A DNA stretch of 64,000 nt from Candidatus Dormibacteria bacterium (GCA_046262455.1 JBHEMS010000002.1:1889-65888); one strand, 5' to 3'. Counted from the first letter of the stretch, positions 5,668 through 56,831 are shown. The notes: generated from the sequence alone by a model not told the origin. Translations and numbers: made by a program.

Positions 5668-5723
5668 GCGGGTTTACAAAGATTTACGGCTAACTGGTGA
5701 TCCTTTAGGAACACGACTCTACC

Positions 5724-6761: not shown

Positions 6762-6777
6762 GGCCCGGGTGCGGGGG

Positions 6778-6854
6778 TGGCGACCCCGACCGGACTTGAA
6801 CCGGCGACCTCCGCCTTGACAGGGCGGCGCGCTAACCAACTGCGCTACGGGGCC
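6778..6854 (-). tRNA. tRNA-Asp (anticodon GTC), CCA encoded
   Basis: Reverse complement GGCCCCGTAGCGCAGTTGGTTAGCGCGCCGCCCTGTCAAGGCGGAGGTCGCCGGTTCAAGTCCGGTCGGGGTCGCCA. It folds by hand into a cloverleaf with anticodon loop CTGTCAA. Confidence 0.95.
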
Positions 6855-6908
6855 ACGCCAGTGAGCCGGCCGTCGAGCCGGGACAGCAGATTATAGGAGC
6901 CGCCCCGC

Positions 6909-9707: not shown

Positions 9708-10795
9708 CACCGGCTCGCCGCGCGCTGGACGTCGGCCATCAAGACCTCTATGGCCAGGCGGGGGTTGACGTTGTTCTCCACCCGGTCCGCCGCCTCGCGG
9801 ACGCTCGTCCACATCTCGACCAGCGACGGCAGTCCGACGCCCGACCAGGCAGGGTCGCTGGCCTCAGCCCACACCGCGGGAGGCACGCTTGGCTCGGAAT
9901 CCGCGGCGCCCGCAAGCGCGCTGGTATCCGGCTGGGTTGGGCCCTCGGTCGTCTCGGCCGCGCCGGCGCGGCCCGCGGTGAAGTCGCGGATCCAACTCTC
10001 CCAGCAGTCCAGCGCCTCACGGGCGAGGGCGCGGTTGGCGGCACTGTCCGAGCCCCCGAATCGCGCCCCGAGGCGCACGATGTCCAACCATGTGCCGGCC
10101 GCGGCGGCCTCCAGCGCCGCGCCCCAGTCGAGCCGGCGGCGCGCCGCGGCGGGGTCAGCCGCCAGGACCAGGGCGAGCCCCGGGCGACCCTGGGCCAAGC
10201 GCAGCAGCGGGCCGGGAAGGTCGACACCCTGGCGGTCCAGGAAATCGCGCATCTCGACGTCGGAAAGGCGGTAGAAGTCGATTACCTGGCAGCGCGAGCG
10301 TATCGTTGCCGGCAAGAGGTCGCCCGCCTCGGCACAGAGGATGAGTACCGCACCGTCGGGGGGCTCCTCGATGGTCTTGAGCAGCGGCGACGCCGCAGCC
10401 TCCTTGAGGCGCTCGGCGCGCGCGATGACTGCGACCCTGCGATCGGTGTGCATTCCGCGCAACGACAGGAATGCCTGCAGCGCCTGTCCCGGGACGCCGA
10501 GCCTGGCCGCCTCCTCGCTTGGCCGCCCGGCCCTGCTGTCCTTGCGAATGACATCGATGCTGATGCTCTCGGTGTCGCTGTCCTCGATCCAGAGGTCGGC
10601 GTGTAAAACACCGTCCTTGAGAGGCGGGCTCCCGGCGGCCTCGAAGAGGTCCCCGGCCAACGCCAGCGCGGTGGCCGTCTTGCCCACCGACGGGGGGCCT
10701 AGGAATAGGTACGCGTGCGACGGCCTTCCCGTCGTCACGGCCCGACGGAGGGCGGCGCGGGCGCGGTCGTGGCCGGCGATCTGGTCGAGGAGCAT
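9707..10795 (-). CDS. holB: DNA polymerase III delta-prime subunit
   Basis: [15 protein letters not shown]...[15 protein letters not shown], then a clamp-loader SRC motif (IRSRCQ). ATG 10795 preferred; ATG 10813 and GTG 10822 are possible. Confidence 0.85.
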
Positions 10796-12141: not shown

Positions 12142-13338
12142 ATGAGGCTTGACACTCGCGGCGCCCGCGGCTCGAACCTCAGGAGGTCGCTGGGGCTGGC
12201 GGGCCTGCTCGCCGTCACTGCCTTAGCCCTGATTGATCCAACGGCGGCGTTGGCCGTCACCGGAACGGCTCCCGGCCTGGGGGTGGCCACCAGCTTTGCT
12301 GTCCTTGCCGGCAGCGCGGTCACCAACACCGGCGCCAGCGTGATCAGCGGCGACCTTGGCGTCAGCCCTGGTAGCGCGGTGACGGGTTTCCCTCCCGGCA
12401 CGGTTGTCAACGGCACGATGCACGTCACCGACGCGACCGCGACCCAGGCGCAGAGTGACCTGGCAACCGCCTACAACAACGCCGCGGGCCAGCCATGCAC
12501 CGACGAGAGTGGCAAGGTGCTGGGCCAGGACATCGGTAGCAACAGCGCCAGTGCTCTCCCTCCCGGCGTGTACTGCTTCTCCACTTCGGCCCAGCTGACC
12601 GGGGCGCTCCACCTCAACGGGCCGGGGGTGTACATCTTCCAGATTGCCACGACTTTGACCACGGCACCCGCGTCCAGCGTGGTGCTCGAAAACAACGCGT
12701 CATCCTGCCAGGTTTTCTGGCAGGTTGGTTCCTCCGCGACGCTGGATACCACGACCGCGTTCGCAGGCACGATCATGGCCCTGGCCAGTATCACCATCAA
12801 CGACGGCGTCGTCCTGGACGGCCGCGCCCTGGCCCGCAACGGCCAGGTGTCGATGATCAACGACAGGATCACCCGGCCTTCGTGCGGACAGGCGTCCAGC
12901 AGCACCACGGTGACATCGTCGGCCAATCCCTCCACGGCGGGCCAACCCGTGACGTTCACCGCCACGGTGAGCGGAGCATCGTCGGGCACGATCACGTTCT
13001 ACGATGGATCCAGCCGGCTCGGCACTGTGCCGGTCGACGCCTCGGGTCACGCCACCCTGACAACGTCCAGTCTCACGCCGGGCACGCACACCATCACCGC
13101 GGTCTTCTCAGGTACGCCTGGCCTGCTCAACAGCAGCTCGCCACCCCTCGTGCAGGTGGTACCCCCTGCCAATGTTCCCGGGATCCCGCGCGCGGGCTCG
13201 GGACCGGGCGCCGCAGGCATGCCCTGGTCACCATGGTCGGGCGCGATGCCCTTGGTCGCAGCGGCCCTGGGCGCTGCAGCGCTTGTTTGGGCCACGTTAC
13301 TTAGTAGCGGATCACCCCTGCGAGGGCCTCGTCGATAG
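12142..13338 (+). CDS. Secreted DUF3494 (ice-binding-like beta-helix) protein with an Ig-like domain and a C-terminal membrane anchor
   Basis: Signal peptide. SFAVLAGSAVTNTGASVISGDLGVSPG...TATQAQSDLATAYNNA is typical of DUF3494. The TVTSSANPS...THTITAVFSG segment is Big-like. The C-terminus is a TM helix plus RGPRR. Confidence 0.85.
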   Translation: MRLDTRGARGSNLRRSLGLAGLLAVTALALIDPTAALAVTGTAPGLGVATSFAVLAGSAVTNTGASVISGDLGVSPGSAVTGFPPGTVVNGTMHVTDATATQAQSDLATAYNNAAGQPCTDESGKVLGQDIGSNSASALPPGVYCFSTSAQLTGALHLNGPGVYIFQIATTLTTAPASSVVLENNASSCQVFWQVGSSATLDTTTAFAGTIMALASITINDGVVLDGRALARNGQVSMINDRITRPSCGQASSSTTVTSSANPSTAGQPVTFTATVSGASSGTITFYDGSSRLGTVPVDASGHATLTTSSLTPGTHTITAVFSGTPGLLNSSSPPLVQVVPPANVPGIPRAGSGPGAAGMPWSPWSGAMPLVAAALGAAALVWATLLSSGSPLRGPRR

Positions 13339-15144: not shown

Positions 15145-16122
15145 ATGCGTCCGGAGGAGTTCGTGCTCGAGCGCCGCGCGGAGTGGCTGGAGATGGAGAG
15201 GCTGGTTCGCCGGGCGTCGGGCTCCCGCCTCGGTGGATTGCGCGCCGAGGAGGTGCTGGAGCTGGCAACCCACTACCGCCGGGCCGCGGCGGACCTCGCG
15301 CGCGCCCAGCGAGATTGGCCACAGGAGCCGGTCACGCTCTACCTCAACGGCCTGGTGGCCCGCGGCCATGGCGTCGTGTACCGCCGCGGCGGGGCCGTGC
15401 TCAGTCGCCTGGCCACCTTCTACTGGCGTACCCTGCCACGCACTTTCCGGGCCTGCGGCGCCTACCTCGGCATCTCGGCCCTCCTGGTATTTCTCCCCGC
15501 CCTGGTCGCAGCCGTGGCCATCGCCAGCCACCCGCAGCTGGCGGGGGGGGTGCTCCCGGGACGGTTGATCACCGCGGTCAAGCACCACGAACTCTGGACC
15601 CAGATCGCCCGCGAGGAGCGGCCGCTGATGGCGGGCTACATCATGACCAACAACATCAGGGTGGCGGTGCTGGCGTTCGCGCTGGGGCCCCTGATCACGA
15701 TTCCAACGATCCTTCTGCTGGTCTTCAACGGCGTGAACCTCGGCGCGGCTTTCGGCTTGACCTACGCCTACGGCCTCAGCGGCGGCCTCTTGGAGTTCGT
15801 TGTCGGCCACGGCGTGATCGAGCTGTCGGTGGTCATCGCCGCCGGCGCCGCGGGTCTGATGATGGGTTGGGCCGTTTTGGTGCCCGGCGTGCGCACACGG
15901 GGAGACGCGCTGCGGATCGCTGGTCGCCGGTCACTGGTGCTGATCACCGGCCTCGCCCCCCTGCTGGTGATCGCCGGCATCATCGAGGGCCTCATCAGCC
16001 CGTCCACCGACCTGCCCGCCTGGCTGCACTACGTCGTGGGCGCGGCCACCGGGATCCTGATGTACGGGTACCTGCTGCTGGCGGGGCGCGGCGGCGACCT
16101 CAGACCAGCGACCGATCCTTGA
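15145..16122 (+). CDS. Stage II sporulation protein M-like (DUF95) membrane protein
   Basis: N-terminal soluble helix (RAEWLEMERLV), then polytopic segments with FTNNIRVA-like MTNNIRVAVLAF and GVIELSV motifs. Confidence 0.85.
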   Translation: MRPEEFVLERRAEWLEMERLVRRASGSRLGGLRAEEVLELATHYRRAAADLARAQRDWPQEPVTLYLNGLVARGHGVVYRRGGAVLSRLATFYWRTLPRTFRACGAYLGISALLVFLPALVAAVAIASHPQLAGGVLPGRLITAVKHHELWTQIAREERPLMAGYIMTNNIRVAVLAFALGPLITIPTILLLVFNGVNLGAAFGLTYAYGLSGGLLEFVVGHGVIELSVVIAAGAAGLMMGWAVLVPGVRTRGDALRIAGRRSLVLITGLAPLLVIAGIIEGLISPSTDLPAWLHYVVGAATGILMYGYLLLAGRGGDLRPATDP

Positions 16123-17452
16123 GCTCGAGGTAGCGCTCAACGACCAGCGGGCTGAGTTCGCCTGCGCGCGCCTCGAGCCAGTGCACGCCACCACGCCGAA
16201 GCACTTCGAAACTCTCGCGCCGAGCGGCCATCAAGTCCTCCACGGCGGCCCACCGGTAGGCGCCGTCAGCGTCGGATATGGGGCTGTCGCGGACGGCCAG
16301 CAGGGCGGGATCGGTCAGTGCCACCACCAGCACCAGGTGCCTCCGCGCCAGGCGCACCGCGTGGCCGACCAGCTCCCGAGACGCCTCCTTCTCCAGCAGG
16401 TCGGTGAGGACGACAACCAGGGAGCGGCGCCCGGCGCGGGTTGCGACCATCGCCATCGCGGCCCCGAAGTCCGGCTCCGTGTACTCGCCGCGCAGACGGT
16501 AGAGGACCTCGTTTAACGCGCGCATCTGACCCTGGCCCGGCCGCGGCGGCAGGTAGCTCTTGACCCTGTCACTGAAGGTGACGAGGCCGACCCGGTCCCC
16601 CTGCGACTGGGCGACCCAGGCCAGCAGGAGCGCGGCGTTCACACCGTGGTCCAGCTTGGTGAGGGTCCCGGCGGGCGCGGTCATCAGACGGCCGGTGTCG
16701 AGCAGGATGATCAGCTGCTGCCCGCGGTCGGCCTCGAACTCCATGGTGACCGGGCTGTCCCGGCGCGCCGTGGCGGTCCAGTTGATGCGCCTGATGTCAT
16801 CCCCAGGGAGGTAGTCGCGCAACGAGGCCAGTGAGGCCGCGCTGCCACGAACCATGGCCCGCCGAGTGCCGCTCAGCGGCGCCAGCCCCCGCCTGGCCCG
16901 CATCTCATGCCGTCGCACCGCGACGGTGTTGGGATAGACCGCCACCTGTTCGCGGAGGTCGACCCGCGCCTGCCGCCACCACAGGCCGTTCGCCTGCCGG
17001 CAGCGCAGCTCGACGGCCCCGAACGCGAATGCACCGCGGCGCGGCGGCTGCACGGTGTACGTGACGGAGGCGCGGCCAGCGACGTCGAAAGTGGTCGCCA
17101 GGACCCGCCGGTCGGGGGCGAGCTCCGCAGGCACGTGGTCGGCCACCTCCAGCACCTTCAGACCGGCGCCCGCCCCAGTGACCGTCACGGTGACGAGCTC
17201 GCGCTCGCCGAGCGAGAGGGGTCGCGGAAGGTCACGGTGGCAGCGGAAGGCGCCGGGCGGGGCCAGCGCCCGGATGTCGCGCAGGGTGAGGAGCGCGAGC
17301 CCCAGGACCCCCGCAAGGAAGAGAACCCACGCCGCGGCGGTGAAAATGGCCAGCGCGGGGAGAGCGGCCACCGTACCCACGGCGACGATCGTTGCCCGTC
17401 GCGGCACCAGGTTCAGCCGCGACCGCGCGAGCCAGGCGCTCAGCCGCCTCAC
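16100..17452 (-). CDS. DUF58 (vWA-like) protein
   Basis: SLRDYLPGDDIRRINWTATARRDSPVTMEFEADR is the DUF58 signature. Two N-terminal TM helices. 4-nt overlap with the moxR stop. Confidence 0.92.
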   Translation of the reverse strand: MRRLSAWLARSRLNLVPRRATIVAVGTVAALPALAIFTAAAWVLFLAGVLGLALLTLRDIRALAPPGAFRCHRDLPRPLSLGERELVTVTVTGAGAGLKVLEVADHVPAELAPDRRVLATTFDVAGRASVTYTVQPPRRGAFAFGAVELRCRQANGLWWRQARVDLREQVAVYPNTVAVRRHEMRARRGLAPLSGTRRAMVRGSAASLASLRDYLPGDDIRRINWTATARRDSPVTMEFEADRGQQLIILLDTGRLMTAPAGTLTKLDHGVNAALLLAWVAQSQGDRVGLVTFSDRVKSYLPPRPGQGQMRALNEVLYRLRGEYTEPDFGAAMAMVATRAGRRSLVVVLTDLLEKEASRELVGHAVRLARRHLVLVVALTDPALLAVRDSPISDADGAYRWAAVEDLMAARRESFEVLRRGGVHWLEARAGELSPLVVERYLELKDRSLV

Positions 17453-18396
17453 CGCGGGGGCGTCACCCGCGCCGCGACGCCCTCGAGCACGCTGTCGGCC
17501 GTCTGCCCGGCGACCTCGGCTTCTGGCCGAAGCAGCAGGCGGTGCCGAAAAGCCGGACGCAGCAGGCTCTTCACGTCGTCCGGCACCACGTAGTCCCGGT
17601 CCTCGAAGGCCGCGGCGGCCTTGCCCGCGAGCATCAGCAGCACCATCGCCCGGGTGCTGGCGCCAAGGCTGACCTCGGGCGCAAGCCGCGTCGCTTCCGC
17701 CAGCTCCAGTATGTAGCGACGAATGCTCTCGTCAGCGGTGACGCCGGTGACCTCCTTGCGGCAGGCCAGGACGTCTTTCGCGCCAAGCACCGCGGTGACA
17801 CCCGCCGCCGCCGGGTCACGCAGCTCGACACCGGCGTTCCACCGCGCGAGGACCTCGGTCTCCGCCTCGGCGCCCGGGTAGTCCATCAGGACCTTGAACA
17901 GGAAGCGATCCTGCTGTGCCTCCGGCAACGGGTAGGTGCCCTCGTACTCCACGGGGTTCTCCGTCGCCAGGACCATGAACGGGTTGGGCAGCGGCCTCTG
18001 CTCCCCCTCCAGGGACACGCCGCGTTCCTCCATGGCTTCGAGCAGTGCCGCCTGGACCTTGGCAGGCGCGCGGTTGATCTCATCGGCCAGCAGGATGTTG
18101 GTGAAGATCGGTCCCGGCCGCACCCGGAAGCTGCGGTCCTTGAGGTCGTAGATGGCGGTGCCGACGATGTCGGCGGGCATCAGGTCAGGCGTGAACTGCA
18201 CGCGACCAAACTGAAGGTCCAGCAGGCAGGCGACGCTCTTCGCGAGCAGCGTCTTACCGGTCCCCGGGACGCCCTCCAGCAGGACGTGGCCGCCCACCAC
18301 CAGGGCGATTGCACACAGGCGAACTGCCTCGTCCTGTCCGACCACCGCCCTGGCAGCCTCGGTTCGGAACTTGTCGTAAAACTGCTTCGATCGCAT
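17449..18396 (-). CDS. MoxR-family AAA+ ATPase
   Basis: VVGQDEAVRLCAIALVVGGHVLLEGVPGTGKT (Walker A), LLADEINRA (Walker B). Confidence 0.95.
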   Translation of the reverse strand: MRSKQFYDKFRTEAARAVVGQDEAVRLCAIALVVGGHVLLEGVPGTGKTLLAKSVACLLDLQFGRVQFTPDLMPADIVGTAIYDLKDRSFRVRPGPIFTNILLADEINRAPAKVQAALLEAMEERGVSLEGEQRPLPNPFMVLATENPVEYEGTYPLPEAQQDRFLFKVLMDYPGAEAETEVLARWNAGVELRDPAAAGVTAVLGAKDVLACRKEVTGVTADESIRRYILELAEATRLAPEVSLGASTRAMVLLMLAGKAAAAFEDRDYVVPDDVKSLLRPAFRHRLLLRPEAEVAGQTADSVLEGVAARVTPPR

Positions 18397-19548
18397 TCAG
18401 CTATTCCTCCGTGTCGGTTGGTCGGTGATCGCGGGGGCGGGACCCAGGGCGGGGTGGGCGAGCCGGTGCAGCGCCTCGGCAGCCACCGCCAGGGAGCGTT
18501 CGTCCTCGACCGTCCCCGCCCTCCCGACGGCGCGCTGCAGCGCATCCGCCAGGGCCGGCCAGCGCTGCCGCAGCGCCCTCTCCACCTGGCCCGCGTCGGC
18601 GGCCTGGCGCAGGCCCGTCTGAGCGGCCACCGCAGCGCGGGTTGCCAACACCAGGCGGTCGATGGTCTGCCGCCTCGCGCCGGCCCGGCGCAGCATCGCA
18701 CCCACCGCCGTCGTGAACTCCGATGAGGCTGGATCCACGGCGGGCTGCAGGGGCACCCGAGGACCGAAGGCGCGGCCGCCCAGCGCGAGCAGCGCGAACA
18801 CCAGGACGACCTCCAGCAGGATTGACAGCCCCCAGGGCGTCAGGAGCCAGCCAAGTGAGCTCCCCTCCCCCGCGCCGCCGGCGTGGTGATACTGGTCGAA
18901 GAGGACCGGGGCCGCCGGCCCCGCTGCCGCCAGCAGGTCTCCGGCGAGCCGCCAATTGCCGTCCAGCCCGATCGTCTCGTTGTCGAGCAGCGTGGTTGAC
19001 GCCAGGGCAAAGTAGCGACCCCCGCCGAGCGAGCCCTGGATACCCACGATGCGCTCGTCGGGCGTGCTGCGGAGCAGGACCACCTGGCTCCCGGAGGGCG
19101 GTTTGAACGCACTGGTCGGTCCGGTACGGACGGTGGTGACCCCGGCCAGGACAGGCGTACCGGCCACGGCCTCGGCGGCGGGGTCGAACACCGGCGAGGA
19201 CTCGACCCGGGCGATGCCCAACGCCCCCTCGAGACCCTGGTTGGGCAGGGTTGCCGCGTACACCAGGACGCCCCCACCCCTGACCCAGTTGACCAGCTCG
19301 TCGGACTCGGAGGGCCTGAACGGGATCTCCGGGCCGAGCACAAACAGCACCCCCGATTTCCCCGGCGGGCGGAAGGTGTCGCGCAGGAGCACGCTGTGGT
19401 GGCCCCGCGCGTCGGCCAGCTGGCGCAGCGCGGACGTTCCGTTGGGGTCATCGCTCTCCGCATCGCCGGTCTGTGCCAATGCGGTGGTCGCCATCCCAAC
19501 GCAGGCCATCGCCGCCAGGCTCGCTGCGACCAGGAACCGCGGCATCAC
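18397..19548 (-). CDS. DUF4350-like secreted protein
   Basis: Signal peptide MMPRFLVAASLAAMACVGMATTALA and a C-terminal TM helix. Sits in the canonical position downstream of DUF4129 and upstream of moxR. Confidence 0.75.
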   Translation of the reverse strand: MMPRFLVAASLAAMACVGMATTALAQTGDAESDDPNGTSALRQLADARGHHSVLLRDTFRPPGKSGVLFVLGPEIPFRPSESDELVNWVRGGGVLVYAATLPNQGLEGALGIARVESSPVFDPAAEAVAGTPVLAGVTTVRTGPTSAFKPPSGSQVVLLRSTPDERIVGIQGSLGGGRYFALASTTLLDNETIGLDGNWRLAGDLLAAAGPAAPVLFDQYHHAGGAGEGSSLGWLLTPWGLSILLEVVLVFALLALGGRAFGPRVPLQPAVDPASSEFTTAVGAMLRRAGARRQTIDRLVLATRAAVAAQTGLRQAADAGQVERALRQRWPALADALQRAVGRAGTVEDERSLAVAAEALHRLAHPALGPAPAITDQPTRRNS

Positions 19549-20387
19549 GCCGCCACCCCGGTCCCCGCCGAGCCGAGGCTGGCCTGGAAGGCGCGGGCGG
19601 CGGCGGAGGCCGCCAGGTAGTCCGCGGCGGTGGGCTCGTGGTGACCGTAGTAGGACCGTTCGAAGGCCAGCAGCAGCGGCCGCAGCACCGGCCCCGTCCC
19701 CGCCCGGCTGAACGTCTCCCGCACCGTCAGCGGGCTGGCGGCGAAGCTACGGTTACCGGAGATCAGTTCCATCGTCCCCGCGGTCAAAGCGCGTATCGCG
19801 CCCCCATGGTCGCCGCGGGCCGCGCTCGCCTCCGCCTCGCGGAAGTACTCCGGAATCACATCGGCGGCTGGCGCTCCCAGGCCACTGTCCTTACGGCGGC
19901 GCAGCAGCGGACCTCGCAAAGCAGGCACCAGCAGCGCTATTGCCAGCAGGGTCAGCCCGGCGACCAGGAGGATGAGGATCCACTTGAAGAGGGCGGCACC
20001 GGGCTGCGTCAGCCAACCCAGGAACCGCGTGAAGAGCTCGCGGACGAACGCCAGCGGGCCCTGGTCCGGGTGGTACCGGGACTCCGCGAGGATGCCCTGC
20101 AGCCTGGCGTTGGTCGCGGCCGGGTCGGGGTCCGTTGCAACCTGGTCCAGGGCCCGCAGGGCGGCGTCGACACGCGACTCAGCCTCGGCCAGGCGGGGCG
20201 GCTGGGCTTCGACGGCGCTGATCGCCTCGAGCTCGGTGGGCGCGCCCTGGTGGAGAACCCGCGCCGCTTCGGCGGCGCGCCGCGTCGCGTCCGTGCCGGT
20301 CGCCGCGCGAAGGACCTCACGGGACCTGGCCAGTGACATGCGGTAGGCGAGCTGGTGGGTGTCCGCGGGAGCCGCGGCGGCAGGCAT
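19545..20387 (-). CDS. DUF4129-like membrane protein (conservative ATG start; probable true start CTG 20456)
   Basis: Central TM helix (WILILLVAGLTLLAIALLV) and a DUF4129-like C-terminus. The in-frame upstream sequence encodes a signal peptide (see findings). Confidence 0.75.
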   Translation of the reverse strand: MPAAAAPADTHQLAYRMSLARSREVLRAATGTDATRRAAEAARVLHQGAPTELEAISAVEAQPPRLAEAESRVDAALRALDQVATDPDPAATNARLQGILAESRYHPDQGPLAFVRELFTRFLGWLTQPGAALFKWILILLVAGLTLLAIALLVPALRGPLLRRRKDSGLGAPAADVIPEYFREAEASAARGDHGGAIRALTAGTMELISGNRSFAASPLTVRETFSRAGTGPVLRPLLLAFERSYYGHHEPTAADYLAASAAARAFQASLGSAGTGVAA

Positions 20388-23693: not shown

Positions 23694-24380
23694 ATGAGCA
23701 AGGACGCGGGCGCTAGCCAGAGCACCGGGGGTTTCCTGGGCGGTCTGACCGAGTCCGAACGCGACGGGCTGCTGGAGCGCGGCCGCCGGCGCCGTTACTC
23801 GAAAGGCGACACCTTGTTCCACGAGGGCGACGCGTCCGACTGGGTCGCGGTGCTCCTCAAGGGCCGGGCCAAGATCTCCTACGACTCTGAGGCCGGGACG
23901 GAGGTCGTGCTCGGCGTGCGCGACCCCGGCGAGCTCCTGGGCGAGCTGTCCGCGCTGGACGGGGCACCACGCTCAGCGACGGTAACCGCCATGGAGCCGG
24001 TCGAGGCCCTGGTCCTCACCGCGGGCGCCTTCCGCATGTACCTCGAGTCGTACCCGCGGCTCGCGCTCCAACTGATCCAGTCGCTCATGAGCCGCCTGCG
24101 AGACGCCGACGTCAAACGCGTGGAGTTTGGGACCTACGACAGCGTGGGGAGGGTGGCGCGTCGCCTCGTCGAGCTGGCCGAGCGTTTCGGACGCGCCGGG
24201 CCGGACGGCGTGGTCATCGAGCTCCCCATCACTCAACAGGAGCTCGCCGGCTGGACCGGCACATCACGCGAATCGGTGGCCAAGGCGCTCCACGCGCTGC
24301 GGCGGCTGGAGTGGGTCGATACCGGACGGCGCCAGTTCGTGATCCGCGACCTCGACGCGTTGCGCCGGCGGGGTATGTAA
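23694..24380 (+). CDS. Crp/Fnr-family transcriptional regulator (cNMP-binding domain plus HTH)
   Basis: The cNMP-binding beta-roll (GELLGELSALDGAPRSATV) and C-terminal HTH (QQELAGWTGTSRESVAKALHAL). Confidence 0.92.
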   Translation: MSKDAGASQSTGGFLGGLTESERDGLLERGRRRRYSKGDTLFHEGDASDWVAVLLKGRAKISYDSEAGTEVVLGVRDPGELLGELSALDGAPRSATVTAMEPVEALVLTAGAFRMYLESYPRLALQLIQSLMSRLRDADVKRVEFGTYDSVGRVARRLVELAERFGRAGPDGVVIELPITQQELAGWTGTSRESVAKALHALRRLEWVDTGRRQFVIRDLDALRRRGM

Positions 24381-24442: not shown

Positions 24443-25309
24443 TCAGTGCAGGGGAGTCCGCACAGAGCTGCTGCCGGCGGGAAGGCCGAGCATCTTCCAG
24501 CCAAGGTCGACAGTCACTTCGGGGCTCAGCTTCGCAAGGGCCTCGGCATCCGGGGCGGCAGCGGCGCACGCGGCATCGTCATTGCCGATGCTCAGCACGC
24601 AGGTGCTGCCGGTCGCGTTGTAGCCGTAGGAGATGGCGAGGTCGATGTTGCCGGCCGCGCCCGGGACCACCACGGGGATGTCCAGGCTGTCGAGCTTCAG
24701 CGACGTCGAGTAGACGTTCACCTGGTTACCCGACTGCTGCCCGTCGACAAAAATCTGCAGGGCGTACATCCGATCGGACATCTTGTGGGACTTGATCTCG
24801 ACCGAGTGCGCCGTGACGTTGGCGGTGTCGAAGCTCACGGAACGCTGCAGCAGTTGCCGCTCGTTCCACTGCGCCGGGCCCACCGGGCTGGGGACGTCTG
24901 TGGATGCGGCTCCGCTGGTCGCTGCGGTGGGATCGACAACAGCCTTGGCCGTACCGGCGGTGGCCGCGGCCACGCTCAGCGCACCCTGGGCGGTGTCGTT
25001 TATGGTCTTGACCTCGCCGTTGGCGATGTCCGTGGCGTTCGGGGCGGCCGCGCCGGCGAGGTCGAGCGCCTGCTGTGCCGTGGCGTCCGCGCTGTCGAAG
25101 GTCGGGTCGAGCTGCGGCCGCGGAACCACGGTCCGCACCTGCTGGTGGTTGACATCTCCCTGGACGGAAAGCCCGTCCGTGCCGAAGATCCCGTCGAGCA
25201 CGCTGTTGACGGGCTGACGGACTGGGCCGGTGATGCCGGCCTGGACACCGAGGCAGCCGGCGGCAAAGGCCAGCCCGGCGGCACCTGGGGCAAGAAGCTT
25301 GCGGTTCAT
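24443..25309 (-). CDS. Secreted protein / possible lipoprotein, no recognised family
   Basis: GGAGGAGGG RBS before ATG 25309. MNRKLLAPGAAGLAFAAGC is a signal peptide with a lipobox-like AAGC. High GC3. Confidence 0.75.
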   Translation of the reverse strand: MNRKLLAPGAAGLAFAAGCLGVQAGITGPVRQPVNSVLDGIFGTDGLSVQGDVNHQQVRTVVPRPQLDPTFDSADATAQQALDLAGAAAPNATDIANGEVKTINDTAQGALSVAAATAGTAKAVVDPTAATSGAASTDVPSPVGPAQWNERQLLQRSVSFDTANVTAHSVEIKSHKMSDRMYALQIFVDGQQSGNQVNVYSTSLKLDSLDIPVVVPGAAGNIDLAISYGYNATGSTCVLSIGNDDAACAAAAPDAEALAKLSPEVTVDLGWKMLGLPAGSSSVRTPLH

Positions 25310-25340
25310 GGAACCCTCCTCCGGGCCTTGGCGGCCCTGA

Positions 25341-26639
25341 ATGTTTTTCGATGGGTTCAATGTCGCCGGGATCGGCCTCGCACTCCACGTACTTCGACAC
25401 AGTCGCGCCGTAAGATTCCGCGCCGTGGTACTTGACCCCCACGATCGATTCGACCGCCTGCGCGCAGAGTGGGCCGCCCTTGCGGATCGCTACCTGCCGG
25501 TGGTGACGCCCGGCTCACCATGGCGCAGCAGCGTGGCGGGCACCCCGTCTGATTTCCCCGACCAGGGATGGAAGCTCCATCTCTCGGCGACGATCCTGAG
25601 CGCGCCGCGACTCCTCCGGCGCGCCGGACCGGTCCTGCGTCGTCATGGGGCCGTGTTCAAGGGCCCGGAGGACCTGGTGTTCCTGGACCGTCTGAACACC
25701 GGCCTGGACGGGTTCAGCCAGATCGGCAAGTGCCTAACGGTCTACTGCCGCAGCACCACTGATGCCGCTGAGCTCGCGCCCGCCTTGCACCAGGCGACGC
25801 TTGGCCTGCCGCATCCCGCGGTCCCTTTCGACCGCCGCTACCGGGAGGGCAGCGCCGTCTACTACCGGTACGGCGCCTTTCAGGAGGACTTCCTTGTCGA
25901 CCCCGAGGGGCATGCCGCGCCGGATCGCAGGGAGTCGGGACGCGCCGTCCCGAACTGGGTATCAGATCCACTCGCGGGTCAGACAGTGCCGGCCGCGCCG
26001 CCGGCGCCCTCCCCCCTCGCGGAGAAGTATCGTGTCTTTCAGGCGCTGCGCAAACGAGGAAAGGGCGGCGTGTTCCTCGCACTCGACGTTACCGCCTCAC
26101 CACCCCGCCTCTGCATCGTCAAACAGGGTCTGAAGCACGGGGAGCCGGGCCCCGACCGTCGCGACGGACACTGGCGTGTACGGCGCGAGGCGCGCGCCCT
26201 GCGCAGCCTGCGCCGCCGGGGCATCCCCGTTCCACAGGTGTTCGCCGAGTTCGACGTGGAGGACGGCCATTACGTCGTCCTAGAGCACGTCGAGGGGACG
26301 GGCCTGGACCAGGTCATCTCCGCCGGCATCACCGCGCTCCAGGCCCGGCGCCTGTCGCGCGAACTGTCGCAGTTGGTGAGGGCGATCCACAATGCCGGTT
26401 GGACGTGGCGAGATTGCAAGCCGGAGAACATCATCGTGACCGGGTCGGGCGAGCTGAGGCCCCTGGACTTCGAGGGCGCATCCCGCAGGGGCGAGAAGCC
26501 CGCATACCCGTTTAATACCCCGTCATACCGCGCTCCTCTGCCCGCACCGGGTCGTCCATCGAAACCCCACGTCGAGGATCGGCACAGCCTGAGATTGGTC
26601 CGCCGCGAACTCATGGATGCGGCGGGTTTGACACGGTAA
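25341..26639 (+). CDS. LanKC/RamC-type N-terminal lyase-like domain fused to a Ser/Thr kinase domain; no LanC cyclase domain
   Basis: Lyase-type core: GWKLHLS...SQIGKCLTVY...AVYYRYGAF. Kinase core: GKGGVFLA, CIVKQG, WRDCKPENIIV, LDFEGA. Start uncertain (ATG 25341, or an in-frame GTG near 25425). Confidence 0.8.
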   Translation: MFFDGFNVAGIGLALHVLRHSRAVRFRAVVLDPHDRFDRLRAEWAALADRYLPVVTPGSPWRSSVAGTPSDFPDQGWKLHLSATILSAPRLLRRAGPVLRRHGAVFKGPEDLVFLDRLNTGLDGFSQIGKCLTVYCRSTTDAAELAPALHQATLGLPHPAVPFDRRYREGSAVYYRYGAFQEDFLVDPEGHAAPDRRESGRAVPNWVSDPLAGQTVPAAPPAPSPLAEKYRVFQALRKRGKGGVFLALDVTASPPRLCIVKQGLKHGEPGPDRRDGHWRVRREARALRSLRRRGIPVPQVFAEFDVEDGHYVVLEHVEGTGLDQVISAGITALQARRLSRELSQLVRAIHNAGWTWRDCKPENIIVTGSGELRPLDFEGASRRGEKPAYPFNTPSYRAPLPAPGRPSKPHVEDRHSLRLVRRELMDAAGLTR

Positions 26640-26715
26640 CCAGCGGACTATATCTTGTACCGCCGAAGGGCGGTTGCCGAGTCGGCGGCCTCAACTGCGA
26701 GAAGGGAGGACCATT

Positions 26716-27111
26716 GTGAAGCTCCACGAAGTGATCAGTCGTGCCGCCGAGGACAAAAAATTCGCCGCCGAGCTGCGAGACCTGGCGTATCGCGCCCGCG
26801 ACGAAGGTATGAAGAGCGCGGCGTGGGCGGAGTTGTTGGAGCACGTCGTCGAGACTCCCAGCGACATGCTGGCGATGAACACCACGGTCGGTTACTCACA
26901 GATGATCACGGCGACGACCAGCAAGAACGCGCTACTCTGCAACGTCATCAGTCAGATCACCGGTGGCACAGGCTTCGCATTCAGGCCCGCTGCGGTTCCT
27001 TCGACTCGAAAGTCCTCTCCTCGAAAGAAGACCGTTTCAAAAAGCAAGCCGGCCAACAAGCCAGCGTCGGCGAGGGCCAAAAAGTCGTCCGCGAGGGGAT
27101 CCAGTAAATAG
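26716..27111 (+). CDS. 131-aa Ser/Thr-rich protein with a helical leader-like N-terminus and a K/R/S/P-rich tail (candidate kinase-lyase substrate)
   Basis: GGGAGGA then 6 nt then GTG 26716, in frame with track ORF 26674..27111. Contains AEDKKFAAEL, a GG at residues 83-84, and an SPRKK-containing tail. Confidence 0.6.
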   Translation: MKLHEVISRAAEDKKFAAELRDLAYRARDEGMKSAAWAELLEHVVETPSDMLAMNTTVGYSQMITATTSKNALLCNVISQITGGTGFAFRPAAVPSTRKSSPRKKTVSKSKPANKPASARAKKSSARGSSK

Positions 27112-27112: not shown

Positions 27113-29908
27113 TCAGTAGGGCGATAGGAGCTGGAGGGCCTTGTCAACAGCGCTCTCCAGCCCCAACCTTGCGCCCGCGTGAAGCTCCAGGTCCAACTCA
27201 GCGGGCTGGAAGACTTCAGTCAGCCGCGCCAGCAACCCGGCACGCATCGCAACTGCGGCCGGCTCCACTAGCCCGGCAGGAGGCTGCCTGCCACCCGTCG
27301 CGCCCAGGAGGTGCGCGCTGGTTGTTGGCTCCCCGGCGTCGGCCGCGAGCACAGCCGCCACCGTCAGACCGGCTGCGATCTCGCGCGGCTCATCGATCTG
27401 CTGCGCGAGCTTGATCCCGTCGGCGAGGTGAGCTGCCGCGTTTGACGCAGCGCCGTCCAGCACGCCAACGCGACCCAGTTCAATGAGGGCAACAGCCAGG
27501 TTCAGGCGGTCATCGACGCGCCGCAGGACGTCTGCGGACTGGGTCAAAGTCGTCCCTGCAAGGGCCGTGTCACCGCGCGCCAGTTCCGCACGACCGCGCA
27601 CGAGGAGACCGAAACCGACGTCACGGTCGTCGCCCAGGGAGTTGGCGATGGCGATGCCTTCAGTCACCAGGTCCGTCGGATCCCGTCCGCTCTCCACGGC
27701 GCAGTGCGCAGCATCCAACAACGCGACTGCCAGCAGATATGGGTCTGTGCTGGCCCGCGCACGCGCGATCGCATCGGCAAACGCTTCAGTGGCTTCCTGC
27801 AATCGGCCGGCGAAATGTGCGGTCATCGCCAAATACCTGGTCGCCTGGGCGGCGCGCACTGCCAGGTTCTCGGACTCCGCCAGCTGCAGCGCCGCGCGGT
27901 GGAATCCCTCCGCAGCGGGGATGTCGTACATCTGCTGGGCCAGCCGACCCGCACCCATGAGCGCATCAGCGCGAAGGTCGGGGCTGGCTCCCGGGCTCGC
28001 CGCGAGCGCCGCCTCGATCCACGACCTTCCCTCCGATAGCATGCTGCGGTAGAGCCAGTACAGCCGTAGGGACCCCGCAACCTCAAGACCCTCCGGAAGC
28101 CGTCTCGAAATCGCCAGCTCCAGCGCAGCCCGGATGTTCTCCACCTCGGCGTCCAGTTGCTCCAGGGTCGCTTCCTGGCCGGCGCCCTTCAGCCGTTCGG
28201 CAGACTCGCGGGCAAGGCCCGTGAACCAGCGCAGATGCTCCCGGCGGACCGCCTCCAGGTCCCCCGACTCCTCCAGCTTCTGGAGCGCGTACTGACGGAT
28301 CGGCTCGAGCAGCCTGAACCGGCTGTGCCCCCCTCCCGCATCGCGAACAACGAGCGACTTGTCCACCAAGCGGCCCAGCAGGTCAAGGATGTCCTCGGCA
28401 GGACCTCTGCCGCATACCGCTTCGGCAGCCTCCAGGCTCCAACCTCCCGAGAAGACCGCCAGGCGGCGGAACACGGCCGCCTCCGCCGCATCCAGCAGGT
28501 TGTGGCTCCAGTCGACGGTCGCCCTCAGCGTGGCCTGTCGGGAAAGTCCAGGCCGCACCGCGGATGTAAGCAAACGGAACTGGTCATCGAGGCGGTCGGC
28601 AATCTGCTGCACGCTGAGAACGCGCACCCGGGCGGCCGCCAGTTCGAGCGCCAGCGGGATGCCCGACAGGCTGGCACAGACCTGCGCGACGGCGGCCTGG
28701 TTCGCGGCGGTCACTGTGAACTCGCGGTCGTGGAGGCGCGCGCGGTCGATGAACAGTCGAACCGCCGGAAACGCGCCGAACTCTTCCAGACGAGGCAGGT
28801 GTGCCGGGTTCGGCGCCGCCAGCGAAGGCACCCGCCACGACACCTCGCCCGGGACGCCCAGCAGCTCGCGGCTGGTCGCCAGGACGGTCAGTCCGCGCAC
28901 CGCCTCCAGCAGCTTTGATGAAGTTTCGGCAACGGCGCTGAGCAGGTGTTCGCAGTTGTCCAGGAGAAGCAGAGTCCGACGGCCGGCGAGATGCGCTACA
29001 ACCGCGTCCCGGACGGCGGCGCCCGGGTCCGCAGCGGCGGCACTCCCGGGCGGCGCCGGCCGCTCGCCAATGCCGAGCGCGGCCGCCACCACGCTGCTGA
29101 CGAGGGCCGGCTCCGTCGTAGAACTGAGCTCCACGAACCACACCCCGTCGGGAAACGCGTCGCTCAGCCCCGCTGCGACTTCCAGCGCCAGTCGCGTCTT
29201 GCCACACCCACCTGTACCAGTCAGGGTCACGAGGCGTGATCCCCTGAGGATGTCCGTCAGGTCGGCGACCTCCCTATCGCGGCCGATGAAGCTCGTTAGC
29301 TTCACGGGCAGGTTGTTGGGGACGGCCTCCAGGCCTCTCAGTTCCGGGAAGTCCGAGGGCAGGTCGGGGTGCGAGATCTGGTAGATCCGCTCCGGTTCCG
29401 TCAGGTCCTTGAGGCGGTGCGAGCCGAGGTCGATGAGGTAGGCGCCCTCGGGCATGTGCTGGGCGGTGCGCGCCTGCGCGGCAGCGGACATCAACGTCTG
29501 TCCACCGACCGCCAGCGACCGCAACCGCGCACACCGGTTGACGTCCGAGCCGTAGTAGTCGCCCTCCCGGAGCTCCGCCTCCCCGACGTGCAACGCGATC
29601 CGGACCTTGAGCGAGAGACCTGCGGGCCAGGGCTCGGCCGCCAGGCCGAGCTGGATATCCACGGCTGCTGCGGCCGCGGAGATCGCGTCGCCAAATACGG
29701 AGAAGGAGCTGTCGCCCTCACCTCGCGACCGCAGCAGCTCGCCGTTGTGGCGCGTGACCGCCTCCTGGATGAGCGCATCGTGGCGCGATAGCGCCGCCCG
29801 CATGGCGATGGCGTCGCGCTCCCACATCCTGGTCGAGCCCTCGACGTCCGTGAGCATGAACGTGATCTCGGCTCTCGCCGCCTTCGCCTCGTCGCGTGCG
29901 ATAGTCAT
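27113..29908 (-). CDS. Class III adenylate/guanylate cyclase domain - P-loop STAND NTPase - TPR repeat protein
   Basis: Cyclase domain: ITFMLTDVEGSTRMWE...GDSSFSVF...YGSDVNRCARL. P-loop: GTGGCGKTRLALEVA. Long helical-repeat C-terminus. ATG 29908 has an AAGGGA RBS. Confidence 0.9.
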   Translation of the reverse strand: MTIARDEAKAARAEITFMLTDVEGSTRMWERDAIAMRAALSRHDALIQEAVTRHNGELLRSRGEGDSSFSVFGDAISAAAAAVDIQLGLAAEPWPAGLSLKVRIALHVGEAELREGDYYGSDVNRCARLRSLAVGGQTLMSAAAQARTAQHMPEGAYLIDLGSHRLKDLTEPERIYQISHPDLPSDFPELRGLEAVPNNLPVKLTSFIGRDREVADLTDILRGSRLVTLTGTGGCGKTRLALEVAAGLSDAFPDGVWFVELSSTTEPALVSSVVAAALGIGERPAPPGSAAAADPGAAVRDAVVAHLAGRRTLLLLDNCEHLLSAVAETSSKLLEAVRGLTVLATSRELLGVPGEVSWRVPSLAAPNPAHLPRLEEFGAFPAVRLFIDRARLHDREFTVTAANQAAVAQVCASLSGIPLALELAAARVRVLSVQQIADRLDDQFRLLTSAVRPGLSRQATLRATVDWSHNLLDAAEAAVFRRLAVFSGGWSLEAAEAVCGRGPAEDILDLLGRLVDKSLVVRDAGGGHSRFRLLEPIRQYALQKLEESGDLEAVRREHLRWFTGLARESAERLKGAGQEATLEQLDAEVENIRAALELAISRRLPEGLEVAGSLRLYWLYRSMLSEGRSWIEAALAASPGASPDLRADALMGAGRLAQQMYDIPAAEGFHRAALQLAESENLAVRAAQATRYLAMTAHFAGRLQEATEAFADAIARARASTDPYLLAVALLDAAHCAVESGRDPTDLVTEGIAIANSLGDDRDVGFGLLVRGRAELARGDTALAGTTLTQSADVLRRVDDRLNLAVALIELGRVGVLDGAASNAAAHLADGIKLAQQIDEPREIAAGLTVAAVLAADAGEPTTSAHLLGATGGRQPPAGLVEPAAVAMRAGLLARLTEVFQPAELDLELHAGARLGLESAVDKALQLLSPY

Positions 29909-29948
29909 GCGGTAATCCCTTGGGTCCCTTCCTTCGGCCCTCATTATC

Positions 29949-30830
29949 GTGGCAGCACTGCAATCACATCCACGCGTCGACTCGGACGTCTCATCCTGGG
30001 TGACCCGCCTCGGCATCCCCGGGATCTTCGACATCCACGTCCACTTCATGCCCGACGCCGCGCAGCGGGCGGTCTGGAGGCACTTCGACGCGCTCGGCGG
30101 CTGGGAGATTCGCTACCGGACCGACGAAGCCACACGCCTCACCACTCTTCAGGAACTCGGGGTGCTCCGTCACACCGCCCTCGCCTACGCGCACAAGCCC
30201 GACATGGCGGCGTGGCTCAACGAGTACACCCTGGGTTTGGCCGAGCGCGACAACCGGACGATCTCGACGTTCACGTTCTACCCCGAACCGTCTGCCGGCG
30301 ACTATGTGCGCGTCGCGCTGGAGCAAGGCGGCCGGGTGGCCAAGGTCCACCTCCAGGTCGGGAAGTTCGACCCCGCGGATCCCCTGTTGGTCTCGGTGTG
30401 GGATCGACTGGAGTCAGCCGGGACCGTCGTGGTGATCCACGCCGGCGCGGTTGCCGACGGCTCGGGAGGAGAGGCGTGGTGCGGGATGGCACCCGTGCGA
30501 CGCCTGCTGCTGGCGCGTCCAGGACTCAAGCTGGTGCTGGCGCACCTCGGCGCCCCCGACTACGCGGACGCGGTGGCGCTGGCAGAGGAGTTCCCCCAGC
30601 TGCTCATGGACACTGCGATGGTCCTGGTGGAGGGCACGGGGTTCAGCTACCCGCCGGACCTGATGGCCTGGCTGCAGGCCTCGCCACGGCGGATCCTCTT
30701 CGGGTCTGATTTCCCTTCGTTCCCCCACGACTATGCCGCACAGCTGCGGGGCCTGGCGGCCACCGGCTTTGGCGAGGCGTGGTTGCGGCGCGTGCTCTGG
30801 CACAACGCCGCCGAACTGTTACCGGGCTAA
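29949..30830 (+). CDS. Amidohydrolase-2 (TIM-barrel metal-dependent hydrolase) family protein
   Basis: IFDIHVHFMPD metal-binding motif, VIHAG, LAHLG, GSDFP. GTG 30000 is an alternative start. Confidence 0.85.
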   Translation: MAALQSHPRVDSDVSSWVTRLGIPGIFDIHVHFMPDAAQRAVWRHFDALGGWEIRYRTDEATRLTTLQELGVLRHTALAYAHKPDMAAWLNEYTLGLAERDNRTISTFTFYPEPSAGDYVRVALEQGGRVAKVHLQVGKFDPADPLLVSVWDRLESAGTVVVIHAGAVADGSGGEAWCGMAPVRRLLLARPGLKLVLAHLGAPDYADAVALAEEFPQLLMDTAMVLVEGTGFSYPPDLMAWLQASPRRILFGSDFPSFPHDYAAQLRGLAATGFGEAWLRRVLWHNAAELLPG

Positions 30831-56818: not shown

Positions 56819-56831
56819 TCGCCGGGCTCCA

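Follow-up and report, generated by a model that had tools for sequence, protein, structure and literature searches.

Can an enzyme that carries the lyase and kinase domains of a lanthipeptide synthetase, and then stops, modify a small protein encoded beside it without a cyclase? This question is raised by a stretch of 64,000 nt, called the window here, from a Candidatus Dormibacteria metagenome-assembled genome (MAG) (GCA_046262455.1 JBHEMS010000002.1:1889-65888; G+C content 66-72%). Positions 25341-27111 of the window, on which this work is focused, hold the open reading frame (ORF) of a lyase-kinase enzyme and, downstream on the same strand, an ORF of 131 codons. Both products are identical to NCBI entries (P0002 for the enzyme and P0001 for the peptide) from a contig of 72 kb. 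An earlier reading of the sequence, referred to as the original prediction, considered the two to be an enzyme-substrate pair. This view is supported by comparative genomics at 80 loci from several phyla and in both search directions, and the two genes probably encode a leader-guided enzyme-substrate dehydration module of the class IV lanthipeptide type that is naturally cyclase-less.

The lyase-kinase enzyme

The enzyme is encoded on the plus strand by an ORF that is open from an ATG at 25341 to the stop at 26639, and the enzyme residue numbers in the text follow this 432-aa frame. The original prediction treated all 432 residues as the product. The length of the ORF stands, whereas the true start is more likely the GTG at 25425, which gives a product of 404 aa (25425-26639). 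This start is probable because it is the NCBI call, the homologues begin there, residues 1-28 are disordered in the AlphaFold2 (AF2) model (predicted local distance difference test, pLDDT, <50), and the G+C content at third codon positions (GC3) is 0.64 in this part vs 0.80 elsewhere. The 28 extra N-terminal residues were rejected as real on the same evidence from homologues, disorder, and GC3.

Every enzyme motif quoted in the original prediction is present, namely GWKLHLS (aa 76-82), SQIGKCLTVY (126-135), and AVYYRYGAF (172-180), followed by GKGGVFLA, CIVKQG, WRDCKPENIIV, and LDFEGA. The proposed order of an N-terminal lyase and a kinase was confirmed with Pfam and NCBIfam. The phosphoSer/Thr lyase domain (25542-25988, plus strand; aa 68-216) matches RamC_N at 1.4e-31 and is marked in the alignments by QGWKLH (K78, H80), GK130, and YYR176YG. 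The compact Ser/Thr kinase domain (26013-26621, plus strand; aa 225-427) matches Pkinase at 2.7e-11 and is delimited by the alignment and the AF2 model. In an alignment of 19 relatives, QGWKLH, GK130, and YR176 of the lyase are invariant, as are G240xG242, K261, E283, RD358-x-K-P-x-N363, and D376-F-E of the kinase, the catalytic loop of the window enzyme being RD358-C-K-P-E-N363. The lyase assignment had been staked on a match to lyase models and on the catalytic Lys and His; RamC_N was matched, and K78 and H80 are kept.

The best NCBIfam match is LanL (class IV; 6.4e-81, 272.9 bits), of which only model positions 17-382 of 851 are matched. LanKC (class III, NF038151) scores 189.1 bits over model positions 51-422 of 833. 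Both scores fall under the equivalog cutoffs (650 bits for LanL and 575 bits for LanKC) because the cyclase third is missing. Since neither a cyclase domain nor an equivalog score was found, the enzyme lies outside LanL and LanKC as these families are defined. In its predicted working, it corresponds to the dehydratase half of a class IV synthetase.

The AF2 model of the enzyme has a mean pLDDT of 85.5, with the lyase at about residues 33-200 and the kinase at 225-427. The lyase and kinase motifs align residue for residue with the solved synthetase 8CAR (E = 3.6e-32). The top Foldseek matches of the model were CuvL 8CAV (template-modelling score 0.71-0.72 by query length, TMq, and 0.38 by target length, TMt; 29% identity) and ThurKC (TMq 0.73), and the kinase fold also matches CurKC. 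The predicted fold is exactly the lyase-kinase half of CuvL and ThurKC. Together, the motifs and the model suggest that the enzyme is a complete, apparently competent lyase-kinase rather than a broken LanL.

Absence of a cyclase and the two-domain family

A LanC-like cyclase domain is absent from the enzyme, which stops at aa 432 and covers CuvL 8CAV with a TMt of only 0.38. The original prediction held that the roughly 470 bp left behind the enzyme could not hide a cyclase by a frameshift. This was borne out, as the gap between the enzyme stop at 26639 and the stop codon of the convergent gene at 27113 is 474 bp and is occupied by the peptide gene. A frameshifted or hidden cyclase was rejected because this short gap is filled by a conserved gene and because the orthologues end at the same place. 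The claim that no LanC-like ORF occurs in the 64 kb also held. No match to the LanC zinc motif was found by a regular expression run on all six frames of the window, and a Pfam scan of ten otherwise unidentified window ORFs (246-479 aa) gave no LANC_like match. These ten ORFs match glycosyltransferase, acyltransferase, PHP, Ice_binding, GNAT, amidohydrolase, and similar families, and the other large window ORFs were read as housekeeping genes.

All flanking ORFs within +/-8 kb of the enzyme at roughly 90 loci were clustered, and representatives were scanned for domains. No protease, ATP-binding cassette (ABC) exporter, or LanC-like protein is recurrent in this range in any clade, and no conserved separate LanC partner was found at any locus. 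The absence of an adjacent protease or exporter, which the original prediction described for the window, holds family-wide: only a peroxidase-like protein, a Ser/Thr-kinase-tetratricopeptide repeat (TPR) protein, and an extracytoplasmic function (ECF) sigma factor recur.

The two-domain form is widespread. In a protein search with 8000 scored candidates, 1194 homologues had E <= 0.001. The best 120 of these 1194, which were inspected for length and Pfam content, are all 395-553 aa long and have RamC_N recorded together with kinase-type families (Pkinase, PK_Tyr_Ser-Thr, Kdo, APH, or ABC1); a LanC-like domain is recorded for none of these 120 in precomputed Pfam. Every relative among those listed has its lyase joined to a kinase domain in one protein, none being a stand-alone lyase. 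For the locus set, an enzyme-only scan with one genome per species gave 341 relatives, and the best 80 loci were taken. These come mainly from Acidobacteriota (Pyrinomonadaceae, Blastocatellia), and the remaining hosts are Chloroflexota, one cyanobacterium, a Propionibacteriales MAG, an Alphaproteobacteria-labelled MAG, and Verrucomicrobiota. Six-frame enzyme ORFs at the 80 loci are roughly 360-590 aa, or about 433-523 aa from the start of the hidden Markov model (HMM) match, and the wider spread is due to upstream in-frame extensions or contig truncation. The homologues thus indicate that the two-domain lyase-kinase is a large natural family and no one-off truncation.

The peptide gene and its product

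The peptide or small-protein gene, the putative substrate gene, lies at 26716-27111 on the plus strand, starts with GTG, and encodes 131 aa of an unannotated family. It ends two bases before the stop codon of the convergent 978-aa gene. The original prediction placed it 76 nt downstream of the enzyme behind GGGAGGA-N6-GTG. The distance and the number of codons stand, whereas the spacer is 5 nt and not 6, the Shine-Dalgarno sequence lying at 26704-26710. G-rich sequences of this kind (e.g. GGGAGG/GGAGG) also precede the start codon in orthologous loci. Upstream of the gene, at 26628-26656 on the plus strand, is a sigma-70-like promoter, TTGACA-N17-TATCTT, which overlaps the enzyme stop codon and has 10 of 12 consensus matches vs 0.1 expected. 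All Dormibacteria loci in which this part was read keep its -35 element; the -10 element reads TATCTT in four of five and TAACCT in the fifth. Although the enzymes of the five Dormibacteria loci are only about 52-57% identical, these elements are conserved, which indicates that the peptide gene has a conserved promoter of its own.

By several lines of comparison, the 131-codon ORF is a real gene. Orthologues are found by phmmer at 4e-20 to 1e-11, GC3 is 0.82 in the leader vs 0.55 in the alternative frame, and the location of the ORF is conserved at another five Dormibacteria loci (L001, L002, L003, L004, and L007).

The product has three parts. The first is a leader-like helical region (26716-26886, plus strand; aa 1-57) with the motifs AAEDKKFAAEL (aa 11-21) and ETPSDML, defined by the AF2 model, orthologue identity, and a weak match to the nitrile hydratase leader peptide (NHLP) clan. 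The second is a flexible core (26887-26967, plus strand; aa 58-84), recognized by low pLDDT and conservation. It contains Y60, T65/T67/T68/S69, Cys75 (26938-26940), Ser79 (26950-26952), T82, and G83-G84. The third is a disordered basic tail rich in K, R, S, T, and P (26968-27108, plus strand; aa 85-131; pLDDT <50), which includes SPRKK. The AAEDKKFAAEL motif, the single Cys, the GG pair at 83-84, and SPRKK had all been noted before and were found where expected. The earlier view that residues 1-45 look helical agrees with the AF2 model (42 sequences), which has helices at 3-12, 14-30, 35-44, and 48-57, a pLDDT of 77-90 over residues 1-50, and 54-59 over 58-83. These four helices (residues 3-57) are accompanied by no strands or beta-hairpin, and no Foldseek match of the peptide model to the PDB was better than E = 6.

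On average, Dormibacteria orthologues are 56% identical over the leader, 40% over the core, and 13% over the tail. A conserved leader with a variable core, as expected of a peptide that is ribosomally synthesized and modified post-translationally (RiPP), was therefore found in the peptide family (56% -> 40% -> 13%), and poly-Thr cores follow the same leader in L024, L059, and P0130-P0132. The residues invariant in the family alignment are G31 and the Cys (C75 in the window), the latter being near-invariant in the family as a whole. A Ser or Thr stands at Cys+4 in 94% of 65 regex-anchored members vs 0-45% at other offsets, and the window peptide has C75-N-V-I-S79 here. In Acidobacteriota, the motif around the Cys is RAY(L/I)VxN(A/G)xCxxxT. 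The GG at 83-84 of the window peptide is not conserved family-wide, and the +/-8 kb around the enzyme contain no transporter or protease that is conserved.

C-terminal to Cys75, aa 76-131 together have a net charge of +14. The Dormibacteria tails are basic without exception (+4 to +17) and contain SPRKK and PAKK-like repeats, vs an average charge of -3 in other clades. The Ser/Thr-rich basic tail of the original prediction is present in the window, but it is specific to Dormibacteria and hypervariable and is therefore a less likely target than C-x3-(S/T) (C75/S79). As the main substrate region, the tail was downgraded because it is hypervariable, Ser/Thr-poor in some orthologues (e.g. L001), and acidic outside Dormibacteria.

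Neither Pfam nor NCBIfam gave a match for the window peptide. With the peptide as phmmer query, only 13 proteins were found among 1.84 billion representatives: seven close Dormibacteria-type orthologues, four distant relatives (P0130-P0133), the query itself (P0001), and the spurious P0128. The latter, a 1227-aa ankyrin-type repeat protein that matches the peptide core, was rejected as a compositional match. The four distant relatives keep the N-terminal 55 residues and have unrelated Thr-rich C-terminal regions, with long poly-Thr runs in P0130-P0132 and a Cys in all except P0131. A profile search with the peptide family gave 66 proteins, all of them 'hypothetical' and with no Pfam domain. 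A word-indexed search with the single window peptide found only itself, and a pattern search with a tighter peptide alignment matched 134 metagenome-contig stretches, of which none was confirmed.

Pairing of the enzyme and the peptide across genomes

A peptide HMM was built from Dormibacteria-type peptides, iterated once, and run on the six-frame ORFs of 88 sources that had been found by the enzyme alone. Exactly one match was obtained in 79 of the 88. Among the genome loci of this set, 72 of 80 have one homologous peptide gene alongside the enzyme on the same strand. Wherever the enzyme ORF was anchored, the peptide match is on its strand, directly upstream in 64 cases (median gap about 27 nt) and directly downstream in seven; the downstream placement is that of Dormibacteria. 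The nine other sources comprise a truncated contig, L071, and seven loci of Verrucomicrobiota. At five of these seven, the corresponding upstream place is taken by a divergent peptide of ~100 aa (FAxFF...CxSYLAPTxxEL...CTDSG). In the reverse direction, three of three peptide-first look-ups fall directly beside a RamC_N/Pkinase gene that was called independently by the source pipelines.

By these counts, the enzyme-peptide pairing is far beyond chance, because it is near-universal in enzyme-first loci and also holds when the peptide is the starting point. The original prediction asked whether homologues of the 131-aa ORF occur with such kinases, and they do (79/88 sources; 3/3 reverse look-ups). 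A precursor that adjoins its enzyme on the same strand across taxa, which is generic to RiPPs, was found in the 79 of 88 sources and in the five divergent Verrucomicrobiota.

Some loci depart from the usual layout. Upstream of its enzyme, L075 has two tandem paralogous peptides of the Verrucomicrobiota type (7113-7421 and 7572-7877); a duplication of precursors is typical of RiPP loci. The Alphaproteobacteria-labelled MAG L071 has no long peptide; four short ORFs surround its enzyme (7036-7875 and 9769-10005), with (I/V)(K/R)LxDLxPxxDxKGG and short Cys/Ser/Thr ends, and these look like multi-copy precursors of the double-Gly type. In L005, a Dormibacteria-related forest-soil contig, a 570-aa protein (5176-6888) lies between the enzyme and the peptide gene and overlaps the enzyme stop by 4 bp. 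It matches no Pfam family and gives only weak BNR/Asp-box hints. The L005 enzyme is 461 aa long and keeps the full kinase C-lobe.

Proposed mechanism

In class III and IV synthetases, Ser or Thr of the core is first phosphorylated by the kinase and then becomes dehydroalanine or dehydrobutyrine when the lyase eliminates the phosphate (PMC2843593). From the domain identity, catalytic motifs, and fold of the enzyme, the peptide family with its motifs, and the near-obligate pairing of the two, we infer the role of the peptide as substrate, the modified positions, the formation of a ring, and the fate of the product as follows. The 131-aa product would dock onto the lyase-kinase via its helical N-terminal region. 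The kinase would then phosphorylate Ser or Thr in the flexible segment behind the leader. Ser79 is the best candidate because of the family-wide C-x3-S/T signal, and T65-S69 and T82 are possible extra sites. The lyase would subsequently remove the phosphate, leaving dehydroalanine or dehydrobutyrine. More tentatively, Cys75 may add to the dehydro residue and form one small thioether (lanthionine) ring without LanC; otherwise, the electrophile would stay free. The adjacent cAMP/TPR signalling genes probably control the pair.

Comparison with known systems

The enzyme resembles the LanL enzymes VenL, SgbL, and CuvL in its lyase-then-kinase order, its catalytic motifs, its best HMM match, and the adjacent gene for a leader-bearing peptide that contains Ser, Thr, and Cys. 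CuvL, a class IV enzyme (PMC11330476), is its best match in both sequence (8CAR) and fold (8CAV). It differs from LanL in that the zinc-dependent LanC-like cyclase is absent, the score is far under the cutoff, and the C-lobe is shortened in Dormibacteria. The precursors differ as well: those here are ~100-130 aa long, begin with an extended helical leader, and have one Cys each. LanKC and LanL have been reported mainly from Actinobacteria and Firmicutes in a survey seeded on the LANC_like domain (PMC7268733), whereas the hosts here are Dormibacteria, Acidobacteriota, Chloroflexota, Cyanobacteria, and Verrucomicrobiota.

The same architecture has been made in the laboratory. VenL-deltaC (residues 1-513; PMC2843593) and SgbL-deltaC (PMC8341899) both dehydrate their peptides fully without a cyclase and are monofunctional, leader-dependent, and non-cyclising. 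Those proteins are constructs of three-domain enzymes, whereas the two-domain form described here is natural, ancient, and associated with its own peptide family.

The LanKC enzymes (RamC/AmfT, ThurKC, CurKC, PneKC) have a homologous lyase-kinase half, as seen in the NF038151 and ThurKC matches. They differ from the window enzyme in having a cyclase domain, and the window peptide, as read from its sequence, has no leader motif of the (I/L)LELQ type. SapB-type products are morphogens rather than antibiotics. The leader of ThurKC binds the lyase/kinase groove and is allosterically activating (PMC10604976), and that of CuvL binds around the kinase N-lobe (PMC11330476). Both of these leader-binding regions are retained in the window enzyme.

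Cyclase-less synthetase relatives that act on leader-bearing precursors are known in another class, and the logic is the same as that proposed here. PoyF (polytheonamide, NHLP leader) is a cyclase-less LanM relative with a dehydrated linear product, and the product of EmbM (phospeptin) is phosphorylated (PMC9505594). However, these enzymes have the class II LanM fold, which is unrelated to a lyase plus protein kinase, and their clusters hold tailoring enzymes and proteases. The EmbA precursor is without Cys, whereas Cys is invariant in the peptide family here.

The peptide itself was likened in the original prediction to NHLP/Nif11 leaders. The resemblance is real. Proteusins and prochlorosins also have a long (>50 aa) helical leader followed by a flexible core, and AxxDxxFAxEL resembles the NHLP motif. 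It is, however, weak and sub-threshold: the best match to the NHLP-clan model NF038399 (L059 relative; 2.3e-4) reached 21.2 bits vs the curated cutoff of 40 bits, and the model was weakly matched by 3 of 14 peptide members of the broad alignment (best E = 0.0072). The NHLP/Nif11 leader structure is a three-helix bundle with a beta-hairpin (PMC12537861), and the AF2 model of the peptide has four helices and no hairpin. A conserved double-Gly, a peptidase-containing ABC transporter (PCAT) as exporter, and a PDB match were not found.

OspF, SpvC, and HopAI1 contain a homologous lyase that irreversibly removes phosphate from pThr or pSer by beta-elimination (PMC2843593; PMC4159009). They are stand-alone secreted effectors that act on host mitogen-activated protein (MAP) kinases phosphorylated by others, whereas the lyase here is fused to a kinase and paired with a small substrate gene. 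In open-access papers and preprints, subscription-only literature being outside this scope, no description was found of natural cyclase-less LanL/LanKC enzymes, of this peptide family, or of Dormibacterota RiPPs. Catalytic domains and chemistry of this kind had been described before; what is new is the natural architecture, together with the partner-peptide family and the genomic wiring.

Several observations weigh against a dehydration module of this type. The Dormibacteria kinase is without the end of its C-lobe: in sequence and model, it ends after a single C-lobe helix (409-427), ~50-60 residues earlier than in relatives of ~470 aa, and the Dormibacteria enzymes are approximately 402-424 aa long vs a median of 472 aa elsewhere. 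This short form is a trait of the clade rather than an artefact of sequencing, because L001, L002, L003, L004, L007, and the window all end there with the peptide gene directly after. On the enzyme side, the lyase-kinase di-domain of ThurKC alone is inactive without the cyclase domain, which is needed for dehydration even when supplied in trans (PMC10604976), and the activity of the window enzyme should therefore not be assumed. As the window enzyme is nearer to class IV than to class III, cyclase-independent activity would nevertheless be favoured. On the peptide side, L001, L002, and L007, that is, three of the six distinct Dormibacteria orthologues, have no Ser or Thr at Cys+4. The conserved Cys region of Acidobacteriota (RAYLVxNxxCxxxT) fits a protein substrate as well as a RiPP core, and NHLP membership of the peptide is unsupported at the curated threshold. 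The thioether step is weakened because the products of VenL-deltaC are uncyclised, with no detectable non-enzymatic cyclisation (PMC2843593). Finally, among the features of a RiPP locus, precursor adjacency and the leader/core pattern were found, whereas a protease or exporter was not; the absence of protease, exporter, and cyclase around the pair is unusual for a secreted RiPP.

Genomic neighbourhood of the pair

In the window, the peptide gene is followed by a convergent gene on the minus strand (27113-30049). It encodes a signalling protein of 978 aa that combines an adenylate/guanylate cyclase domain with a STAND NTPase and with TPR (Guanylate_cyc 8e-7, AAA_22, AAA_16, nSTAND1, TPR_MalT; synteny), and gives partial NCBIfam matches to AfsR, HaaT, and FxSxx_TPR. 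This protein is the counterpart of the Acidobacteriota Ser/Thr-kinase-TPR proteins. Upstream, at 23694-24380 on the plus strand, is a conserved neighbour, a Crp/Fnr-family cyclic nucleotide (cNMP)-binding regulator (NCBIfam CRP, 2.1e-24; synteny), which is kept upstream in L001, L002, L003, L004, and L007 and not in L005. Between the regulator and the enzyme, and divergent from the latter, a minus-strand gene (24443-25312) encodes a lipoprotein-like protein of ~289 aa with the N-terminus MNRKLLAPGAAGLAFAAGC, for which no Pfam or NCBIfam match was found. Minus-strand genes in a similar position (277-288 aa) are present in L002, L003, L004, and L007, not in L001, and are likened to it by size and position only. 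The lipoprotein-like gene is an uncertain member of the system.

The synteny of the five Dormibacteria loci (L001, L002, L003, L004, and L007) comprises two acyl-CoA dehydrogenases, the Crp regulator, usually the lipoprotein-like gene, the enzyme, the small ORF, and the convergent STAND-TPR gene (~930 aa). In L001 (10537-10977), L002 (10585-11040), and L007 (10545-11000), a separate cNMP_binding gene (146-151 aa) follows a STAND-TPR protein that has no recorded cyclase domain. In the window, the separate cNMP_binding gene is absent and Guanylate_cyc is N-terminal on the STAND-TPR protein, which looks like a swap of cyclic-nucleotide modules. No Crp box (TGTGA-N6-TCACA, <=2 mismatches) was found near the pair, and such sites are fewer in the window than expected by chance.

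The Acidobacteriota layout consists of a haem-peroxidase-like gene, the peptide, and the lyase-kinase, followed on the opposite strand by the Ser/Thr-kinase-TPR gene and an ECF sigma gene (TIGR02999). Of the 76 assessable loci, 58 have the convergent Ser/Thr-kinase-TPR gene (~860-920 aa, FlgO-like in its middle part) directly against the enzyme. An ECF sigma gene occurs at 61 loci; examples are L009 9362-12136, L016 9559-12150, L030 11924-12493, and L088 9763-12922. The haem-peroxidase-like protein (~490-530 aa; partial match to animal haem peroxidase, PF03098, 2.5e-11) is encoded directly upstream of the peptide on the same strand in 53-55 Acidobacteriota loci (L008-L070, L088/L089), for example, at L088 6505-7968. 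It is absent from the window and all Dormibacteria loci. It could be a tailoring enzyme, e.g. for Tyr or Cys cross-linking. The Verrucomicrobiota loci (L075, L076, L077, L085, and L087) are flanked by ORFs of ~580-680 aa that, by reading only, have a hydrophobic start and a KSIAVLPF motif.

Alternative explanations

The competing reading that survives best retains the chemistry and changes its purpose. Unlikely as it is judged to be, it is kept open because no locus has a protease or exporter and because most loci have a TPR signalling neighbour. In it, the small protein would stay full-length and intracellular or cell-associated and would be phosphorylated and then irreversibly 'eliminylated' as a signalling switch, as OspF/SpvC do to MAP kinases. 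The circuit in question, which is equally unlikely, would consist of cyclase-STAND-TPR and Crp in Dormibacteria and of Ser/Thr-kinase-TPR and ECF sigma in Acidobacteriota, with the H1-like basic tail binding DNA or a polyanion. The frequent kinase-TPR and sigma genes fit such a circuit, and so does their replacement in the window by cyclase-STAND-TPR and Crp; however, regulators are common as passengers of RiPP clusters, adjacency alone is no proof of a circuit, and there is no Crp box near the pair. The folded helical region of the peptide (~57 aa) and the conserved motif around the Cys would likewise suit a regulatory protein, whereas the poly-Thr hypervariable cores (L024, L059, P0130, P0132) and the tandem or multiple precursors (L075, L071) resemble natural-product precursors. 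The consistently basic Dormibacteria tail with its SPRKK and PAKK-like repeats would suit binding to DNA or another polyanion, but tails are acidic outside Dormibacteria. A narrower form of this reading, somewhat more doubtful again, would use lanthipeptide chemistry itself as the signalling switch: one Ser or Thr would be turned into a dehydro residue or a Cys thioether in an unprocessed protein that is read by or controls the TPR protein, in Dormibacteria via the DNA-binding tail.

It is improbable that the small protein is an accessory subunit, activator, or specificity factor and that the enzyme in fact targets a different protein, for instance the adjacent kinase, a sigma factor, or a foreign protein. 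Some support for this idea comes from stand-alone phosphothreonine lyases, which share the fold and act on protein kinases, and also from the predicted folding and conservation of the N-terminal region of the peptide and the allosteric activation of ThurKC by its leader. Nevertheless, the Cys and the Ser/Thr at Cys+4 are conserved family-wide in the flexible part, where a substrate site would be expected, and the Thr-rich cores of distant members make sense only as substrates. To our knowledge, all characterised relatives act on an adjacent peptide.

The slimmest chance is given to an ordinary split class III/IV system, in which a LanC-like cyclase, a protease, and an exporter elsewhere in the genome would finish a ringed lanthipeptide: the window is only 64 kb of a MAG, the invariant Cys and C-x3-S/T could form a (Me)Lan ring, and ThurKC requires its cyclase domain, even in trans, for dehydration, but the window has no LANC_like domain, no extra ORF beyond the peroxidase-like, Ser/Thr-kinase-TPR, and ECF sigma genes is conserved within +/-8 kb at 80 loci of several phyla, the two-domain form is typical of a large clade (best 120 of 1194 homologues, 395-553 aa), and each peptide has one Cys only.

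Significance

The two-domain lyase-kinase is natural, abundant, and broadly distributed among soil phyla whose natural products have been little explored. It is tightly tied to a peptide family that had no annotation before and in which Cys-x3-Ser/Thr is conserved. A cyclase-less family of this kind is invisible to the usual lanthipeptide mining because such mining is seeded on the LanC-like domain (e.g. PMC7268733). If the dehydration module is real, it would represent a new RiPP or protein-modification family that needs no cyclase and whose products are peptides either linear and dehydrated or with a single thioether, and its enzyme would be a compact natural Ser/Thr dehydratase for peptide engineering. 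If the signalling switch is instead the true role, the pair would be a widespread bacterial regulatory module of post-translational modification based on 'eliminylation'. Stand-alone ancestors of class III/IV synthetases were reportedly proposed by Goto et al. It can now be tested whether these synthetases evolved from such a module by gaining a cyclase, and also what lies behind its consistent linkage to TPR signalling proteins.

Other features of the window

Several window genes stand apart from the pair. At 16100-20387 on the minus strand are MoxR-type AAA ATPase, DUF58, and DUF4350-like genes, and at 53316-57100 on the same strand, a DUF58-like gene lies beside a gene for a large transglutaminase-like membrane protein; both groups were assigned by sequence reading only. 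An ECF-type sigma gene followed by an anti-sigma-like gene, also a matter of reading only, is found at 45319-46745 on the plus strand, in a position unrelated to the enzyme-peptide pair. The secreted product of the plus-strand gene at 12142-13338 has an Ice_binding domain (PF11999, 4.4e-54) and, behind it, a bacterial Ig-like domain. It may bind ice or act as an adhesin, and could hold a clue to the habitat of the host.

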